Source: a phage
Length of the DNA: 64,000 nucleotides
Reading direction: 5' to 3' (one strand)
Sequence record: PZ386977.1
The notes under the pieces are model-generated. The model was not told the DNA's origin. It saw only the letters and a list, made by a program, of their open reading frames with translations, and ran no database searches. A program made the translations under genes and the position numbers. Of this stretch, positions 1,867 through 64,000 are shown one piece after another. The first letter of the stretch is position 1; the number at the start of each line of letters is the position of its first letter.

Positions 1867-3849
1867 ATGTCACTTCTCTCTCCGGGCGTTGAGCTCAAAG
1901 AAACTACCGTACAGAGTACTGTAGTTAATAACTCCACTGGTACTGCTGCCCTGGCCGGAAAATTCCAATGGGGACCTGCATTCCAGATTAAACAAATCAC
2001 TGATGAAGTTGCATTAGTTGATATGTTTGGTACTCCTAATACGGATACAGCAGATTATTTCATGTCTGCTATGAACTTCCTTCAATATGGTAATGACCTT
2101 CGTGTTGTACGCGCAGTTGACCGTGATACTGCTAAGAACTCATCTCCTGTAGCAGGCAATATTGAATTCACAATCTCTGCTACTGGTAGTAACTATGCAG
2201 TTGGTGATAAAATTATCGTTAAGTATTTGACCGAAACTGTTGAAGCAGATGGTTATGTCACTTCAGTTGATGTCGATGGTAAAATTCTTAACATTTATAT
2301 CCCAACCGGTAAAATTATTGCTCGTGCAAAAGAAATTAATGAATATCCGGCATTGGGTTCTAACTGGACCGCCGAAGTTGCCAGTTCTTCTTCTGGACTT
2401 TCTGGCGTTATTACAATTGGTTCTATCGTAACCGATTCGGGTATTCTGTTAACTGAAGTTGAAACTTCTGAAGAAGCTATTACTTCTCTAACTTTCCAAG
2501 AATCTATTAAAAAATATGGTGTCCCAGGCGTAGTTGCTCTTTATCCTGGTGAACTTGGCGACCAGCTCGAAATTGAAATCGTATCTAAAGCAGACTATGA
2601 CAAAGGTGCTTCAGCCCAGTTAAAAATTTATCCTGATGGTGGTACTCGTGCATCTACGGCTAAAGCAATCTTTGGATATGGCCCACAGTCTGATGACCAA
2701 TATGCAATTATAGTTCGTCGTAACGATGCTGTAGTTCAGAGCGTAGTTCTTTCTACTAAACGTGGTGAACGCGATATTTATGGTAGTAATATCTTTATTG
2801 ATGATTTCTTTGCTAAAGGTGCAAGCAATTATATTTTCGCTACTGCACAAGGTTGGCCAAAAGGTTTCTCTGGCGTAATCAAACTGGGTGGTGGCTTATC
2901 ATCTAATGAAACGGTTGACGCTGGTGATTTAATGGAAGCTTGGGATTTGTTTGCTGACCGCGAATCTGTTAATGCGCAGTTGTTTATTGCAGGTTCTTGT
3001 GCAGGTGAATCTTTAGAAGTTGCTTCTACAGTTCAGAAACATGTTGTAGCAATTGGTGATTCTCGCCAAGATTGTTTGGTTCTTTGCTCACCGCCACGTG
3101 CAACTATAGTCGGTATTCCTGTTAATCGTGCAGTTGATAATCTGGTTGATTGGCGTACTGCGTCAGGAACTTACACTGATAATAACTTTAATGTAAGTTC
3201 TACTTATGCTGCTATTGACGGTAACTATAAATATCAATATGACAAATATAATGACGTGAATCGTTGGGTTCCATTAGCTGCTGATATCGCTGGTCTTTGT
3301 GCTCGTACAGACAATATTTCTCAGCCTTGGATGTCTCCAGCCGGTTATAACCGTGGACAAATTCTTAACGTTATTAAGCTTGCAATTGAAACTCGCCAAG
3401 CGCAGCGTGATCGTTTGTATCAGGAAGCTATTAACCCTGTTACTGGTACCGGTGGTGATGGGTATGTTCTGTACGGTGATAAAACTGCCACTTCTGTTCC
3501 TTCACCATTTGACCGTATTAACGTTCGTCGTTTGTTCAATATGGTTAAAACGAACATTGGTTCAGCATCCAAATATCGCCTGTTTGAATTGAACAACGCA
3601 TTTACCCGTTCTTCTTTCCGTACAGAGACTTCTCAATATCTACAGGGTATTAAAGCTCTCGGTGGTGTATATAACTTTAAAGTTGTTTGTGATACTACCA
3701 ATAACACCCCAGCAGTTATCGACCGTAATGAATTTGTAGCTACTTTCTACTTACAACCAGCCCGCTCGATAAATTATATTACGTTGAACTTTGTAGCAAC
3801 AGCAACTGGTGCCGATTTCGACGAACTAATTGGTGCTGTAGGTGCCTAA
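1867..3849 (+). CDS. 18: tail sheath protein (gp18)
   Basis: 660-aa ORF, size and position match T4 gp18; late promoter and RBS upstream. Confidence 0.93.
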   Translation: MSLLSPGVELKETTVQSTVVNNSTGTAALAGKFQWGPAFQIKQITDEVALVDMFGTPNTDTADYFMSAMNFLQYGNDLRVVRAVDRDTAKNSSPVAGNIEFTISATGSNYAVGDKIIVKYLTETVEADGYVTSVDVDGKILNIYIPTGKIIARAKEINEYPALGSNWTAEVASSSSGLSGVITIGSIVTDSGILLTEVETSEEAITSLTFQESIKKYGVPGVVALYPGELGDQLEIEIVSKADYDKGASAQLKIYPDGGTRASTAKAIFGYGPQSDDQYAIIVRRNDAVVQSVVLSTKRGERDIYGSNIFIDDFFAKGASNYIFATAQGWPKGFSGVIKLGGGLSSNETVDAGDLMEAWDLFADRESVNAQLFIAGSCAGESLEVASTVQKHVVAIGDSRQDCLVLCSPPRATIVGIPVNRAVDNLVDWRTASGTYTDNNFNVSSTYAAIDGNYKYQYDKYNDVNRWVPLAADIAGLCARTDNISQPWMSPAGYNRGQILNVIKLAIETRQAQRDRLYQEAINPVTGTGGDGYVLYGDKTATSVPSPFDRINVRRLFNMVKTNIGSASKYRLFELNNAFTRSSFRTETSQYLQGIKALGGVYNFKVVCDTTNNTPAVIDRNEFVATFYLQPARSINYITLNFVATATGADFDELIGAVGA

Positions 3850-7444: not shown

Positions 7445-8257
7445 ATGATCAAAGAACAACTTTTGAAAGAAGCTCAGAATATCGAGACTTCAGTTGCTCT
7501 TAATAGTGTTTTCGAATCAGTAGAACTGTCTCCGGACGTTAAAGCTAATTTCAGCACTGTATTCGAAGCCACCGTTAAGCAGGAAGCAGTCAAACTAGCT
7601 GAATCTCATATCAAAGCTATCGCCGAAAAAGCCGAAGAAGAAGTTGAAAAGGCTAAAGAAGATGCTGAAGAGAAAGCTGATAAAAAATTGGCTGAACAAG
7701 CTTCTAAATTCCTGGACCATCTTGCAAAAGAATGGCTCGCAGAAAACCAAATCGCAGTTGATAAAGGCATTAAAGCTGATTTGTTCGAATCCATGCTTGG
7801 TGGTCTGAAAGAACTGTTTGTTGAACATAACGTTGTTGTTCCAGAAGAATCTGTAGATGTTGTAGCAGAAATGGAAGAAGAGCTGGCCGAACATAAAGAA
7901 GAAACCGCTCGTTTGTTCGAAGAAGTTACCAAACGTGATGCATATATCAATTACGTTCAGCGTGAAACCGCTATTAATGAAAGCGTAAAAGACCTGACTG
8001 AATCTCAGAAAGAAAAAGTTATTGGCCTGGTTGAAGGTATGGATTATTCTGACGCATTTGGTACTAAGTTAACTGCTATTGTAGAAATGGTTAAAGGTTC
8101 TACTAAAGAAGAAGCCGATATTACCGAAAGTATAAATACAGTTGACAATGACGCTGCCGGTCTTAATTTTGTTGCCGAAGCAGTTGACACTACCACAACT
8201 CAGGTAGAACAGAATTCTAATGTAAGTTTATATGCGAAAGTCGCATCTCGTTTCTAA
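7445..8257 (+). CDS. 22: prohead core scaffold protein (gp22)
   Basis: 270-aa highly acidic, helical, E/K/A-rich ORF immediately upstream of the major capsid gene. Confidence 0.9.
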   Translation: MIKEQLLKEAQNIETSVALNSVFESVELSPDVKANFSTVFEATVKQEAVKLAESHIKAIAEKAEEEVEKAKEDAEEKADKKLAEQASKFLDHLAKEWLAENQIAVDKGIKADLFESMLGGLKELFVEHNVVVPEESVDVVAEMEEELAEHKEETARLFEEVTKRDAYINYVQRETAINESVKDLTESQKEKVIGLVEGMDYSDAFGTKLTAIVEMVKGSTKEEADITESINTVDNDAAGLNFVAEAVDTTTTQVEQNSNVSLYAKVASRF

Positions 8258-60811: not shown

Positions 60812-61471
60812 ATGGCAACACCAAAAGTATCATTTTCGCCTAGTGATATTCTATTTGGGTTGCTAGATCGTATTTTCAAAGATAACGCTACTGGAAAGGT
60901 TTTAATGTCCCGAGTAGCGGTAATTATTCTTTTGTTCCTAATGGCACTAATATGGTACAAAGGAAGTATTTTGCTGGATTATTATGTAAGAGCTAAGTAT
61001 GATACTTATACTGAAATAATCCAAAAAGAACGAGCTTTACGTTTTGAATCTGCGGCTCTAGAACAACTGCAAATAGTTCATATCTCATCTGGTGCAGATT
61101 TTAGTGCTGTGTATTCTTTCAGACCTAAAAACTTAAATTATTTCGTCGACCTTATAGCTTATGAAGGCAAACTGCCTAGCACAATTTCTGAAAAGTCCCT
61201 TGGGGGATTCCCAGTAGATAAAACGGCCAATGAATATATAATTCATTTAAGTGGCCGTCATTTCTCGTCTAAATCAGAATTTGCATTTTTGCCTACAAAA
61301 TCTAAGACTGCCGAACTTTCTTATATGTATAGTTGTCCATACTTTAATTTGGATAACATCTACGCTGGAACTGTGACGATGTATTGGTATAAGGGGAGTA
61401 ATATACTTGAGGAAGATCGCTTAGCAGCTATATGCAACCAAGCGGTCCGAATACTAGGAAGGGCTAAATAA
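60812..61471 (+). CDS. t: holin T
   Basis: 219-aa ORF with single N-terminal transmembrane segment (VAVIILLFLMALIWY) and large C-terminal domain; follows gene 38 as in T4. Confidence 0.88.
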   Translation: MATPKVSFSPSDILFGLLDRIFKDNATGKVLMSRVAVIILLFLMALIWYKGSILLDYYVRAKYDTYTEIIQKERALRFESAALEQLQIVHISSGADFSAVYSFRPKNLNYFVDLIAYEGKLPSTISEKSLGGFPVDKTANEYIIHLSGRHFSSKSEFAFLPTKSKTAELSYMYSCPYFNLDNIYAGTVTMYWYKGSNILEEDRLAAICNQAVRILGRAK

Positions 61472-61744
61472 TTAGTTGTTAGAATACATCGCTAAATGAC
61501 GATAAATATTTTCAAAACCTTCATTGAATTCACTAATCAGTGTTTTCTTTTCTTCGGCAGTTAAATTTGTAATTAGTTTTCTAAAAGAATTCTGATTTAG
61601 CTGCCGACCATCTTTTTTAATTCCAATCTCATTCAAGAAACCGATAAAACTTGCTCGGTCTTCAACAATATCTTCCCTAGAGAATTTAATCAAAATAGAA
61701 GCAATAGTAATAATTTCGCGTACGATTTCAATGTCTTTATTCAT
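61472..61744 (-). CDS. asiA: AsiA anti-sigma-70 factor
   Basis: 90-aa ORF, exact T4 AsiA size, convergent with t. Confidence 0.85.
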   Translation of the reverse strand: MNKDIEIVREIITIASILIKFSREDIVEDRASFIGFLNEIGIKKDGRQLNQNSFRKLITNLTAEEKKTLISEFNEGFENIYRHLAMYSNN

Positions 61745-61790
61745 AACGTTTTATTCATTCCACTTAGTTGATATGGATATAGTACCATTA

Positions 61791-61952
61791 TCAGTGTTGA
61801 TTGTAAACGGCTTTTTCTACGCTTTTAACGTAATCAATGTAGTCTTCCTGTTCATACGAGTGTAAGGCCAAGAATGGAACTAATAGTTCATTATAGACTA
61901 AAGCCTCACGCTCACGTTCGGCCTCTACTACGTTCTGAAGATTATGACTCAT
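61791..61952 (-). CDS. hypothetical small protein (about 53 aa)
   Basis: start set at Met MSHNLQ with RBS AAGGAA; the longer track ORF overlaps arn by 65 nt. Confidence 0.35.
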   Translation of the reverse strand: MSHNLQNVVEAEREREALVYNELLVPFLALHSYEQEDYIDYVKSVEKAVYNQH

Positions 61953-62241
61953 ATTGTTCCTTATAACTATCAATGTAGTCCTGTATGTCGAAGAATGACA
62001 TTTCATATTCTAGGACATTAAGAGCCCGTTCTTCAGTATAGTCAGAACCAAAGACGATAGTGATTTCACCAGGCTTCATATGATTGAAATCGACACTAAA
62101 AGGAATACGAGAACATACTTCGTCTGCCATATCTACGATAACACTACGACACACTTCTCGGTTAACCTGATAAAGCTCTGCAAGTTCTTCACATCGAATA
62201 ACAAGTTCAGTGGCAGGATTTTCTTTGATTTTAGTAAACAT
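61942..62241 (-). CDS. arn: Arn-like protein (anti-restriction, McrBC inhibitor in T4)
   Basis: 99-aa acidic ORF at the T4 arn position between asiA and motA; assignment positional. Confidence 0.6.
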   Translation of the reverse strand: MFTKIKENPATELVIRCEELAELYQVNREVCRSVIVDMADEVCSRIPFSVDFNHMKPGEITIVFGSDYTEERALNVLEYEMSFFDIQDYIDSYKEQYES

Positions 62242-62315
62242 AGTCTTTACCCTTATGTTTTTGTTTACGCTTAGATTGAAGTTCTGATTTCTTCTTGTCC
62301 TTATGAACAGAAGCC

Positions 62316-62543
62316 TTATTGAAATCGTGTTTTGCTACAAGATTGTTCATAATGATTTATAACCTCGTTTAAACATTTGTCTGTGAAAGAAAACTTTTTA
62401 GCCACAGAACATTCAATAATATGCTCTTTCAAATCTTTAGGGTCGGTATAACCCATCTCAGTAATAAAGTGGCGAATTAAAGCTTTATTCTTATCATTAA
62501 CAGAATTAAAATAATCTGCTTTAGAATCAATTATTCTCATCAT
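62316..62543 (-). CDS. hypothetical protein (75 aa)
   Basis: ORF in arn-motA early cluster. Confidence 0.5.
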   Translation of the reverse strand: MMRIIDSKADYFNSVNDKNKALIRHFITEMGYTDPKDLKEHIIECSVAKKFSFTDKCLNEVINHYEQSCSKTRFQ

Positions 62544-62808
62544 CTAATTTCCTTAATTGATATTGCAACGAGCTAATAATTTCTTCGTTCATTTTAATAT
62601 ACATGTCGCGCAAGAAAGGTTTTAACCCATCACGAATAATTGCTAACGTATCACCTTTACATAAATTAACCAAATAAGGATGATCTAAAGCATCCCAACC
62701 AGGCTGATTAGCATACATACCATAATTTTCTTCCATCATAGCATTCAGGCGTTTGATATGATTAATGTGGGCTTCAATAGCATCAATCTGGAGTTGTTTA
62801 AGATTCAT
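62527..62808 (-). CDS. hypothetical protein (93 aa)
   Basis: ORF in arn-motA early cluster. Confidence 0.5.
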   Translation of the reverse strand: MNLKQLQIDAIEAHINHIKRLNAMMEENYGMYANQPGWDALDHPYLVNLCKGDTLAIIRDGLKPFLRDMYIKMNEEIISSLQYQLRKLDDENN

Positions 62809-63269
62809 TAGTAAAGGTCCTCAGAGTAAAGTTCTTTTTCATTACCACCACGTTCAATACGTACTTGTCCAGCGTAAGTTGCAATAATCATTGCTTCTTC
62901 ACGTGTCCAATAATTACTATATTGGTCAATAAACCCTTGGTCATCATCACAAACTTGTTGAGTAACTAATTGAGGTTTAACTACATCTAAAACTTCTGCC
63001 ATATCTTTAGAATAATGACGAGCACCTGGAATAATAAGAGTTCGTCCATCTTTTAATTTAAAACGGTTGGCTGCGCAGACAATTCGTCGTTGATACTTTT
63101 GGTTTTCATCCCAATACAGAGTCTGCCAACAGATTTCAGGAACTTCGTCTAAAACATTTTGTTCTGTATATTCACCACCGTAAGAAGCTAATTTAGCAGC
63201 CAGACTTTCCGGAGTCTCACGCGACAAAGCTTTATCTAACAGAGCTAAACGTTCTTTAAAAGTTTTCAT
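62808..63269 (-). CDS. hypothetical protein (153 aa)
   Basis: ORF coupled on both sides (ATGA overlaps). Confidence 0.55.
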
Positions 63270-63595
63270 TTAAACCATTCCTTAACACGTTGCCAAATAG
63301 ATTTTTGTGATTGTTTATTTACACCAATCGAACGAATAACCGGTTGTGACTGCTGATATTCTTTATAATCTTCTTTATAGATTTCGTAAGCTGCATCAAC
63401 AAATGAACTGATCGCTGCCATAAAGTTTTTACGAAGGCCAAATGGCGCGTCATTATTTTCACGAATAACCGTATATTGGCCTGCTTTAATCTTTACAATT
63501 GTCCCTAAATAAGCCCCGTGATACCAAATATCCCATCCTTCCTGAGTAGGTTCTGCACATTTACGAAGTTCGTTAATAATATTCAGCTTATTCAT
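63266..63595 (-). CDS. hypothetical protein (109 aa)
   Basis: ORF coupled to the 153-aa gene. Confidence 0.55.
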
Positions 63596-63605
63596 TATGT
63601 ATTCC

Positions 63606-64000
63606 TCACAGTACGTTAGTTACAAGTGTAATGATTTCTTTGGACACATTAGGGAAGTCAATATAAGTATATTTACCACCGATCTTAATCTTAACATCAT
63701 TTTCAAGAGAAGTAAACAGCTTTGATTCAGTTTCTGACATGTTGTATGCAAAGATTCTAAGAGCGCCATCTCGTCGAATTTCAATTTGGCGAATGCCTAG
63801 AACTCGTTTAGCGAATCGAACTTCTAAGTTACTACGGTTTTCACCAATTTCTTTAACTTCAACTTTATCTTTAATATTTTCAAAAACAAAGTTTGCTAAT
63901 TCATGCATTTCAGGAGTAACTCCACGTGCTTTTCTGGTGTTACGTTTCTGAAGAAGTTCTGGAGCATTTTCTTGGGCAAAGAGGTCTGCAGCTTTTTGGA
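63606..64000 (-). CDS. motA: MotA middle-transcription activator, 3' part (5' end lies beyond the window)
   Basis: reading frame is open to the window edge; translation ...LFAQENAPELLQKRNTRKARG... continues into the 100-aa track ORF; T4 position after arn cluster. Confidence 0.7.
   Translation of the reverse strand, partial: QKAADLFAQENAPELLQKRNTRKARGVTPEMHELANFVFENIKDKVEVKEIGENRSNLEVRFAKRVLGIRQIEIRRDGALRIFAYNMSETESKLFTSLENDVKIKIGGKYTYIDFPNVSKEIITLVTNVL

Follow-up and report, generated by a model that had tools for sequence, protein, structure and literature searches.

We analysed the end of a 64,000-nucleotide (nt) stretch of phage DNA (sequence record PZ386977.1; henceforth referred to as 'the window'), where a cluster of small genes lies on the minus strand between motA and asiA. 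This block is the known arn operon of T-even phages in its most intact form, and its gene families have already been catalogued. It consists of seven real protein-coding genes packed end to end behind motA: arn.4, arn.3, arn.2, arn.1, a gene of 39 amino acids (aa) that we call orf39, a diverged arn and asiA.1. What we add here is the demonstration that this 39-aa frame encodes a true gene, a link between the 99-aa open reading frame (ORF) at the arn position and the Arn family, the finding that no solved structure is like Arn.3, and the hypothesis that Arn.3 mimics the antitoxin CmdA. The best explanation as a whole, to which we give a probability of roughly 0.55, is an arn operon of real genes in which Arn.3 would be a two-part counter-defence protein and orf39 would dock onto a host protein; the products of the block would be small host-takeover proteins, expressed early or in the middle period, whose chief mode of action would be to bind components of the host or of defence systems.

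Organisation of the arn block

The last 2.6 kb of the window are 98-99% identical to Mosigvirus (RB69-like) T-even phages, for example Shigella phage SHSML-52-1 and Escherichia phage phiEC1. Genes 38 and t, on the plus strand, come first and are followed by the minus-strand cluster, which is transcribed in the order motA (which exits the window), the 109-aa, 153-aa, 93-aa, 75-aa, 39-aa and 99-aa ORFs, asiA.1 and asiA. A preliminary description of the window, made from the letters alone, had reported five of these ORFs between arn and motA, and all five lie exactly at the coordinates it gave, on the minus strand, with the 39-aa sequence letter for letter as reported. The genes of the block and, after them, the two flanking genes are the following.

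arn.4: 63266..63595, minus strand; 109 aa, isoelectric point (pI) 9.2; homologue of T4 Arn.4
arn.3: 62808..63269, minus strand; 153 aa, pI 4.9; N-terminal two-helix module plus T4_Y16D core
arn.2: 62527..62808, minus strand; 93 aa, pI 5.2; 40% identity to T4 Arn.2; phrog_1844 (family assignment from PHROG alone)
arn.1: 62316..62543, minus strand; full-length 75-aa form, of which residues 30-72 correspond to T4's annotated 43-aa Arn.1
orf39: 62231..62350, minus strand; 39 aa, basic, pI 10.1, MNNLVAKHDFNKASVHKDKKKSELQSKRKQKHKGKDYVY; DUF7230 (PF23876), phrog_1359
diverged arn: 61942..62241, minus strand; 99 aa, acidic, pI 4.3; at the arn position, assigned to the Arn family by iterative hidden Markov model (HMM) searches and hhalign
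asiA.1 homologue: 61791..61952, minus strand; 53 aa from an MSHNL start, as in the RefSeq coordinates of a relative; the MSHNLE N-terminus is conserved across loci
motA, 3' part: 63606..64000, minus strand; activator of middle transcription, directly upstream of the arn block and running out of the window; Pfam MotCF, expectation value (E) 5e-9; MotA annotated at the same position in relatives
asiA: 61472..61744, minus strand; anti-sigma-70 factor, closing the cluster on its downstream side; Pfam AsiA E 2.4e-32; 73% identity to T4 AsiA

In a BLASTP comparison with T4 proteins, Arn.3 was 83% identical (E 4e-96), Arn.4 75% over the 68 aa of the T4 protein (E 1e-37), Arn.1 79% over T4's 43 aa (E 7e-22) and Arn.2 40% (E 6e-21). 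By this homology and by their same order between motA and arn, the four larger ORFs that the preliminary description had placed there belong to the T4 arn.1-arn.4 families. Relatives annotate them as the conserved hypothetical proteins Arn.1-Arn.4, and the 39-aa ORF as a coding sequence (BI097_gp073; 'RB32ORF249c'). The product name 'anti-restriction nuclease' that some arn.x genes bear is a label spread from gene names, not a tested function. The match to known T4 arn.x proteins, which the preliminary description had coupled with an established housekeeping role as evidence against an anti-defence function, tells neither way, because the arn.x proteins have no established function, housekeeping or other.

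The block is free of gaps. The motA stop is separated from the arn.4 start by 10 nt, and from there on each gene overlaps the next: arn.4/arn.3 by 4 nt (ATGA), arn.3/arn.2 by 1 nt (TAATG), arn.2/arn.1 by 17 nt (14 nt if counted from the second ATG), arn.1/orf39 by 35 nt, orf39/99-aa ORF by 11 nt and 99-aa ORF/asiA.1 by 11 nt. The 39-aa frame overlaps both of its neighbours, the 75-aa ORF at its stop and the 99-aa ORF at its start, as had been described, while the 'ATGA-type overlaps' ascribed to the whole series hold for arn.4/arn.3 only. A GAGG/AAGGA site lies 6-12 nt upstream of every ORF in the block, orf39 included, and the stop/start overlaps make translational coupling possible. The proposal that the ORFs between arn and motA form one unit agrees with this tight packing and with a preprint on phage T2, which reports arn.4-arn.3-arn.2-arn.1-arn as one abundant middle transcript and, within the operon, a known function for Arn only (bioRxiv 10.64898/2026.06.19.733364). 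In the mechanical ORF list asiA.1 begins at an ATG further upstream and has 71 aa (61791-62006); the MSHNL start reduces its overlap with the Arn-like gene from 65 nt to 11 nt.

Consensus scans found promoter-like and terminator-like sites in the block at chance frequency only, and no MotA-box/-10 pair within 61400-64000; an Rfam search of the region gave no match. The sole terminator-like hairpin of the block (62677-62696, inside arn.2) holds a MotA-box-like TGCTTTA with no TAnnnT -10 at the right spacing, and such sites occur at chance level. Over the whole window, the pattern TGCTTNA-N(10-14)-TANNNT occurred 17 times, the majority on the minus strand, compared with an expectation of 6.1 +/- 2.6 and at most 12 in any of 100 shuffles, an excess in keeping with genuine MotA-dependent promoters in other parts of the window.

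The N-terminus of Arn.3 is related to the antitoxin CmdA

Arn.3 is built of two parts.

Arn.3 residues 1-32: 63174..63269, minus strand; CmdA-antitoxin-like two-helix module (PADLOC, BLASTP, shuffles, AlphaFold2 (AF2))
Arn.3 residues 44-153: 62811..63140, minus strand; T4_Y16D core of four strands, helix, strand, helix and an LYSEDLY tail (alignment of 74 homologues)

Sequence comparison identifies the N-terminal module as a homologue of the N-terminus of CmdA. Residues 1-30 of Arn.3 match positions 1-30 of the 77 positions of the PADLOC model PD-T4-9_B (E 1.2e-8), and 13 of the 74 Arn.3 family members also match the model (best E 2.5e-10); PD-T4-9 is the CmdTAC toxin-antitoxin-chaperone system, and its component B is the antitoxin CmdA. 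With the primer sequences in the supplement of the Nature paper on this system as query, we recovered a genuine CmdA encoded in a P2-like prophage carried by E. coli N2250 (MLSFEQRMALLNKALQQYNPESLYEKLSSYPA...ELDLAA) and aligned it to the Arn.3 N-terminus. Seventeen of 32 residues were identical (53%; BLASTP E 3e-9), and the BLOSUM62 score of 83 lies about 16 standard deviations above the 19 +/- 4 obtained with 5000 shuffles (maximum 42). The nucleotide sequences are 51% identical and only 31% so at third positions, which argues that the sharing is not a recent transfer. AF2 predicts helices at residues 4-14 and 20-29 of Arn.3, and the CmdA N-terminus likewise consists of two helices (PMC11618068). 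In E. coli N2250 the complete cmdT-cmdA-cmdC (CmdC being SecB-like) occupies 1929-3142, between DinI-like and portal genes of the prophage, and the cmdA 5' primer region was matched in three of 5426 complete E. coli genomes.

The likeness to CmdA ends with this module. The remainder of Arn.3 folds confidently in the model and contains no unstructured chaperone-addiction tail; the protein ends in YSEDLY, where CmdA ends in ELDLAA, and carries no LAA ClpXP degron; and its gene lies between arn.4 and arn.2, not between genes for an ADP-ribosyltransferase and a SecB-like chaperone. Judged by its sequence relatives, the module moves between unrelated phage proteins. In Acinetobacter phage LAPP1 it lies at 3001-3090 (VKPFEERLELLDKALSKETPESLAEKLQSY; 77% identity to Arn.3 residues 1-30), in the middle of a 324-aa protein that has no Pfam match, upstream of a Cas4-like gene and with no toxin nearby. 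A pattern scan of genome contigs for the module elsewhere gave no confirmed relative, and plasmids gave no match.

The T4_Y16D core of Arn.3

PF26092 (T4_Y16D) is carried by 119 of 120 Arn.3 homologues, up to 97% identical, among the matches listed in a precomputed table, which places the core in this family. Across 74 homologues eleven columns are invariant (R61, A66, A67, R84, H85, Q111, G112, F113, D115, R123 and Q135) and the LYSEDLY end is conserved. The 'enzyme-like look' that had been attributed to the 153-aa protein is a fair reading: most of these columns (R61, R84, H85, Q111, D115, R123, Q135) are polar. The fold matches nothing solved. An exhaustive profile search returned 3463 cluster representatives at E<=1e-3, in which the core (~95 residues) either stands by itself (90-110 aa) or forms the C-terminal part of longer proteins (200-434 aa). 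The family is present in 1595 phage records, among them those of Ackermannviridae (Salmonella phage Det7) and of Pseudomonas phages.

The predicted model of Arn.3 is confident (predicted local distance difference test, pLDDT, 90) and found no fold match in the PDB. Foldseek against BFVD returned many uncharacterised phage proteins and three 'large polyvalent protein associated domain' (LPD) proteins, the latter at marginal values (E 0.017-0.11; template modelling (TM) score 0.35-0.37); neither Arn.3 nor the extensions of its relatives matched a Pfam LPD family. The extensions of the distant relatives gave no Pfam domains and no names, and their neighbouring genes were uninformative. The core, with its invariant Arg, His, Asp and Gln, would most likely bind or process a small phosphorylated ligand or nucleic acid, and would work alone in the phages that do not have the hairpin.

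A possible antitoxin mimic

CmdTAC restricts Tevenvirinae only, and fires when ClpP degrades CmdA; CmdT and CmdA together are toxic when CmdC is missing (PMC11618068). In the explanation that we favour, the N-terminal hairpin of Arn.3 would copy the part of CmdA that holds the toxin in toxin-antitoxin-chaperone systems, and could take CmdA's place on CmdT-type toxins without being degradable. Since it has neither the addiction tail nor the LAA degron, Arn.3 could go on neutralising a CmdT-type mRNA ADP-ribosyltransferase once degradation has removed the host's CmdA, to an extent that would depend on the allele. We hold such a role for Arn.3 to be tentative, and would sooner doubt it than rely on it; the fuller version, in which T-even phages fused a CmdA hairpin onto Arn.3 and so gained a degron-free, chaperone-independent and allele-specific mimic that disarms CmdT-type toxins, is slightly more speculative again.

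The behaviour of individual phages gives a mixed picture. Two BASEL T-even phages, Bas35 and Bas38, are unrestricted by CmdTAC, 12 of the 13 BASEL T-even phages having been tested (PMC11618068). We compared the Arn.3 alleles of five of the 13 (Bas35, Bas38, Bas44, Bas46 and Bas47). The N-terminus scored 83 against CmdA (BLOSUM62) in the window phage, 75 in the Mosigvirus phages Bas46 and Bas47, 72 in Bas38, 68 in Bas35, and 54 in T4 and Bas44. Both phages that escape CmdTAC carry non-T4 Arn.3 N-termini (one of them MKTFEERLEMLNVAL), found in no other BASEL phage among the matches listed. Bas35 (WilhelmHis) has in addition a 51-aa ORF between arn.4 and arn.3 (7841-7996), which is absent from the window, T4, Bas38, Bas44, Bas46 and Bas47.

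Several observations weigh against a mimic. T4 is strongly restricted by CmdTAC though it has Arn.3, and its escape mutants map to alt.-3 only, not to arn.3 (PMC11618068). Bas46 and Bas47 score 75, yet neither is named as an exception, and with 12 of 13 phages tested at least one Mosigvirus must be restricted. The module is present in 816 phage records compared with 1595 that bear Arn.3, about half being without it; its presence inside the unrelated LAPP1 protein suggests that it may be a generic helical hairpin; contact of the CmdA helices with CmdT is itself deduced from the paradigm of toxin-antitoxin-chaperone systems; and searches of PDB sequences and folds and of BFVD led to no ligand, fold or catalytic assignment for the core.

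The strongest competitor draws on the same observations. It regards Arn.3 as an accessory enzyme or ligand binder of nucleotide or nucleic-acid metabolism, with the hairpin a generic oligomerisation or stability module that has no connection with CmdTAC. The wide conservation of the core (3463 representatives, often alone at 90-110 aa) with its invariant R/H/D/Q, the hairpin in the Acinetobacter phage protein, the restriction of T4 despite its Arn.3 and the silence on Bas46 and Bas47 as exceptions are all in keeping with such a protein. What it leaves unaccounted for is the 30-residue match to CmdA, which is specific and strong (E 1e-8 to 2.5e-10), is N-terminal in both proteins and connects a protein of T-even phages with a system directed at these phages alone; nor does any metabolic family, fold or gene neighbourhood support it. 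We regard it as a real possibility that falls well short of probable.

If the mimic that we propose is real, it would explain the escape of Bas35 and Bas38 from CmdTAC and would be the first function for T4 arn.3, and the allele of the window phage, 53% identical to CmdA, would be a natural anti-CmdTAC factor. Arn.3 is in any case a T4 protein with a confidently predicted fold unlike any in the PDB that shares a module with the antitoxin of a T-even-aborting system, so that its function becomes cheaply testable.

The 99-aa ORF is a diverged Arn-family protein

Arn is the T4 inhibitor of McrBC restriction and a DNA-mimic protein; its structure was reportedly described by Ho et al. in 2014. The preliminary description had called the downstream neighbour of orf39 'arn', and the name proves right in an indirect way: BLASTP found no match between the 99-aa ORF and T4 Arn, and no chain named Arn came up when the PDB was searched with phmmer, but the two are linked through intermediates. 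When an HMM was iterated over the 1003 ORFs of the fetched loci, the 99-aa and T4 Arn seeds each converged, through such intermediates, on the same 22 sequences, which share a C-terminal [DE]-x-[LI]-[EQ]-D-Y-[FI] motif. Direct comparison of the two families by hhalign gave a probability of 69% (E 4.4e-5 over 76 columns), from small family alignments. With 21 D+E in 99 residues and a pI of 4.3, the protein is compatible with an acidic DNA-mimic surface, and in the annotation by the BASEL authors the Mosigvirus 99-aa ORF bears the name Arn. We accept it, on the strength of these results, as a diverged member of the Arn family. Mosigvirus DNA bears arabinosyl-hydroxymethylcytosine and not glucosyl-hydroxymethylcytosine, so the target of the 99-aa protein may differ from that of T4 Arn.

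Arn.1, Arn.2 and Arn.4

Of the remaining arn.x proteins, tblastn found Arn.4 in 1001 phage records, Arn.2 in 942 and Arn.1 in 807. Pfam, searched with single proteins and with all family members, gave no consistent family for Arn.1, Arn.2 or Arn.4, NCBIfam gave nothing meaningful, and PDB sequence searches returned nothing below E 0.1 for these three, Arn.3, orf39 or the 99-aa ORF. Two PADLOC matches, of Arn.2 to Hp1 (E 0.0028) and of Arn.4 to REase_II (E 0.0018), were treated as chance. Of the anti-defence candidates put forward in the preliminary description, Arn.3 gains one item of real support, its CmdA-like module; for Arn.1, Arn.2, Arn.4 and the 39-aa protein the idea stays conjectural, Pfam, NCBIfam, PDB and PADLOC having given it nothing beyond weak, chance-level matches.

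In Arn.1, H41, C45, C57 and H64 (H-x3-C-x11-C-x6-H; window 62349-62423) are invariant in 7/7 diverse homologues aligned, are kept in T4's truncated form and may form a small metal-binding site; the sequence past residue 65 is variable and shares its DNA with orf39. Of the 807 Arn.1 records, 802 cover at least 80% of the 75 aa. In T4 (NC_000866) the arn.1 frame is open upstream of the annotated 43 aa (2807-2893, corresponding to window 62457-62543), with TTG where the window phage has ATG; over 74 residues it shares 70% identity with the 75-aa form. When T4 is compared with the window, the ratio of non-synonymous to synonymous differences (pN/pS) is 0.30 for codons 1-29 and 0.26 for the annotated core. 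Because the upstream frame is open and constrained, the 70-nt 'intergenic region' with an RNase E site in T2 is probably Arn.1 coding sequence, which affects how the constructs of the ArcZ/RNase E study of the T2 operon are to be read.

T4 arn.4 is similarly annotated as 68 aa. In the reference strain ATA replaces the ATG start of the relatives and the window phage (T4 3835-3957, corresponding to window 63470-63595), but the 41 codons upstream have stayed intact and conserved; across all 109 aa the identity is 78%. The predicted layout of Arn.4 is a helix, a sheet of 4-5 strands, a long helix, a low-confidence linker and a C-terminal amphipathic helix. The last of these (residues 99-109; 63269-63301) is conserved, with a hydrophobic moment of 0.67 and an AF2 helix at 100-107, and may resemble membrane-targeting helices such as those of MinD and FtsA.

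orf39 is a gene of the DUF7230 family

orf39 is an independent, real gene under purifying selection that T4-like, KVP40-like and Aeromonas phages retain irrespective of the genes next to it, and 'sub-threshold', the term first applied to it, undersells a Pfam family member that relatives annotate. Residues 2-37 match PF23876 with 49.3 bits (gathering cut-off 27; E 5.2e-13), as do 5/5 diverse homologues, and the protein also matches phrog_1359 (E 6e-22). By tblastn it is present in 1413 of 50,697 phage records, including Klebsiella, Enterobacter, Cronobacter, Edwardsiella and Morganella phages, KVP40-like Vibrio phages and Aeromonas phages, and a profile search returned 812 clusters, all of 37-73 aa and all unnamed. 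Across 74 IMG/VR loci it follows arn.1, arn.2, arn.3 or a gene unrelated to these and precedes T4-type arn, the 99-aa type, asiA.1 or another gene, and some loci contain no arn.x gene or no downstream arn-family gene. Shine-Dalgarno-like sites precede the start even in unrelated upstream contexts, and in Aeromonas phage AsFcp_4 the homologue is annotated as a coding sequence and overlaps nothing.

Absence of codon-level conservation had been named as the result that would speak against the 39-aa frame, and such conservation is present. In a pooled Nei-Gojobori analysis of 42 gap-free homologues, the frame had a pS of 0.81, a pN of 0.21, a ratio of 0.26 and no stops; four of the five other frames had ratios >1.2 and the fifth, the reverse frame with the wobble position in common, 0.34, and all five held 29-304 stops. 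Heterozygosity at codon positions 1/2/3 was 0.23, 0.19 and 0.50. Codons 1-12, within the arn.1 overlap, are the best conserved part of orf39, and the overlapped arn.1 tail is variable or absent; codons 13-36 of orf39 are free of any overlap. T4 has an uninterrupted copy (MNNLVAKHNFNKASVHKDKKKAFKESNRKQKHKGKVYDY; 79.5% identity) between arn and arn.1, at 2584-2700 of NC_000866, which RefSeq does not annotate; the same gap occurs in the BASEL genome annotations. The block as such is ordinary and its genes are catalogued, yet a DUF7230 gene of 39-41 codons, among the most widely kept of the region, is missing from the reference annotation.

The family motif is N-x-V-A-K-[HN]-x(2-4)-F-N-[KR]-[AG]-x-x-H-x-D-[KR]-K, followed in T4-like phages by R-K-Q-K-H-K-G-K. 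In phi92-like phages the first 22 residues are kept and the tail is acidic, from which we infer that the functional core is the N-terminal motif and not the charge. This invariant 22-residue motif would most likely dock onto a conserved host protein, with the tail, basic in T4-like and acidic in phi92-like phages, modulating the docking. Literature searches on DUF7230, PF26092, Y16D and RB32ORF249c found nothing in the literature searched.

The basic composition of orf39 enters into a different account of the whole cassette, in which it would modulate host or phage gene expression, as MotA and AsiA do, and not defence, with Arn.1 for instance a metal- or DNA-binding factor and orf39 a binder of nucleic acid or ribosomes. 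The position of the block between motA and asiA, the invariant H41, C45, C57 and H64 of Arn.1, and the pI of 10.1 and 12 K+R in 39 residues of orf39 would all suit it. However, whatever the threshold, the searches brought up no helix-turn-helix, zinc-finger or RNA-binding family, the acidic tail in phi92-like relatives means that the basic charge is not conserved, and Arn, the sole characterised member of the operon, is anti-restriction; we consider this account improbable.

Far less credible is the notion that the 39-aa frame encodes no functional protein and is a chance ORF, or a coupling or leader device whose translation and not sequence serves downstream arn expression. The frame is indeed short and lysine-rich, overlaps both neighbours, reaches 11 nt into the arn start with its stop, and is left unannotated in T4 RefSeq and the BASEL genomes. 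Against this stand amino-acid conservation over 1413 records and 812 clusters, a score above the Pfam gathering threshold, a pN/pS of 0.26 with saturated synonymous sites, and the occurrence of the gene without a downstream arn-family gene and, in AsFcp_4, without any overlap.

An ArfA-like protein that inserts its basic tail into the mRNA channel of the ribosome, suggested by an apparent resemblance of NNLVAKHDFNKASVHKDKKK...RKQKHKGK to ArfA, is almost certainly not what orf39 is: a family profile search gave no ArfA among PDB-chain matches at E<=10 (these chains presumably include ArfA-ribosome complexes), hhalign gave a probability of 0.3% over 7 aligned columns, and there was no Pfam ArfA match.

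Comparison with known systems

The block shares with the arn operons of T4 and T2 the same gene order between motA and asiA.1/asiA, and all four arn.x genes are clearly homologous. It differs from T4 in having normal ATG starts for arn.1 (75 aa) and arn.4 (109 aa), for which T4 RefSeq has truncated 43- and 68-aa forms, in an Arn.2 that is just 40% identical, and in an arn that has diverged beyond BLASTP detection. T2 has a 70-nt 'intergenic region' and an ArcZ site at the 3' end of arn.2, for which the window has no gap, since arn.2 overlaps arn.1. The 99-aa protein resembles T4 Arn in position, size (99 compared with 92 aa), acidity, C-terminal motif and a reciprocal iterative HMM link, and differs from it in showing no direct pairwise similarity; inhibition of McrBC is putative here. 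orf39, with the length and motif of DUF7230 and PHROG 1359 members, is an ordinary member of that family. The core of Arn.3 is the founding type of Pfam T4_Y16D, in which many members consist of the core alone or carry other N-terminal extensions. Arn.3 and CmdA are alike in their homologous ~32 residues, which form two helices at the extreme N-terminus of both, and differ in that Arn.3 carries a folded T4_Y16D domain and has no adjacent ADP-ribosyltransferase or SecB gene.

Phage antitoxin mimics are known, such as T4 Dmd, which acts against RnlA/LsoA and is unrelated in sequence to the host antitoxins. Arn.3, whose activity is putative, would differ from Dmd in that its resemblance to the antitoxin reflects actual homology, confined to a single module within a larger protein; the logic proposed is the same, with a phage protein replacing a labile host antitoxin so that abortive infection stays off.

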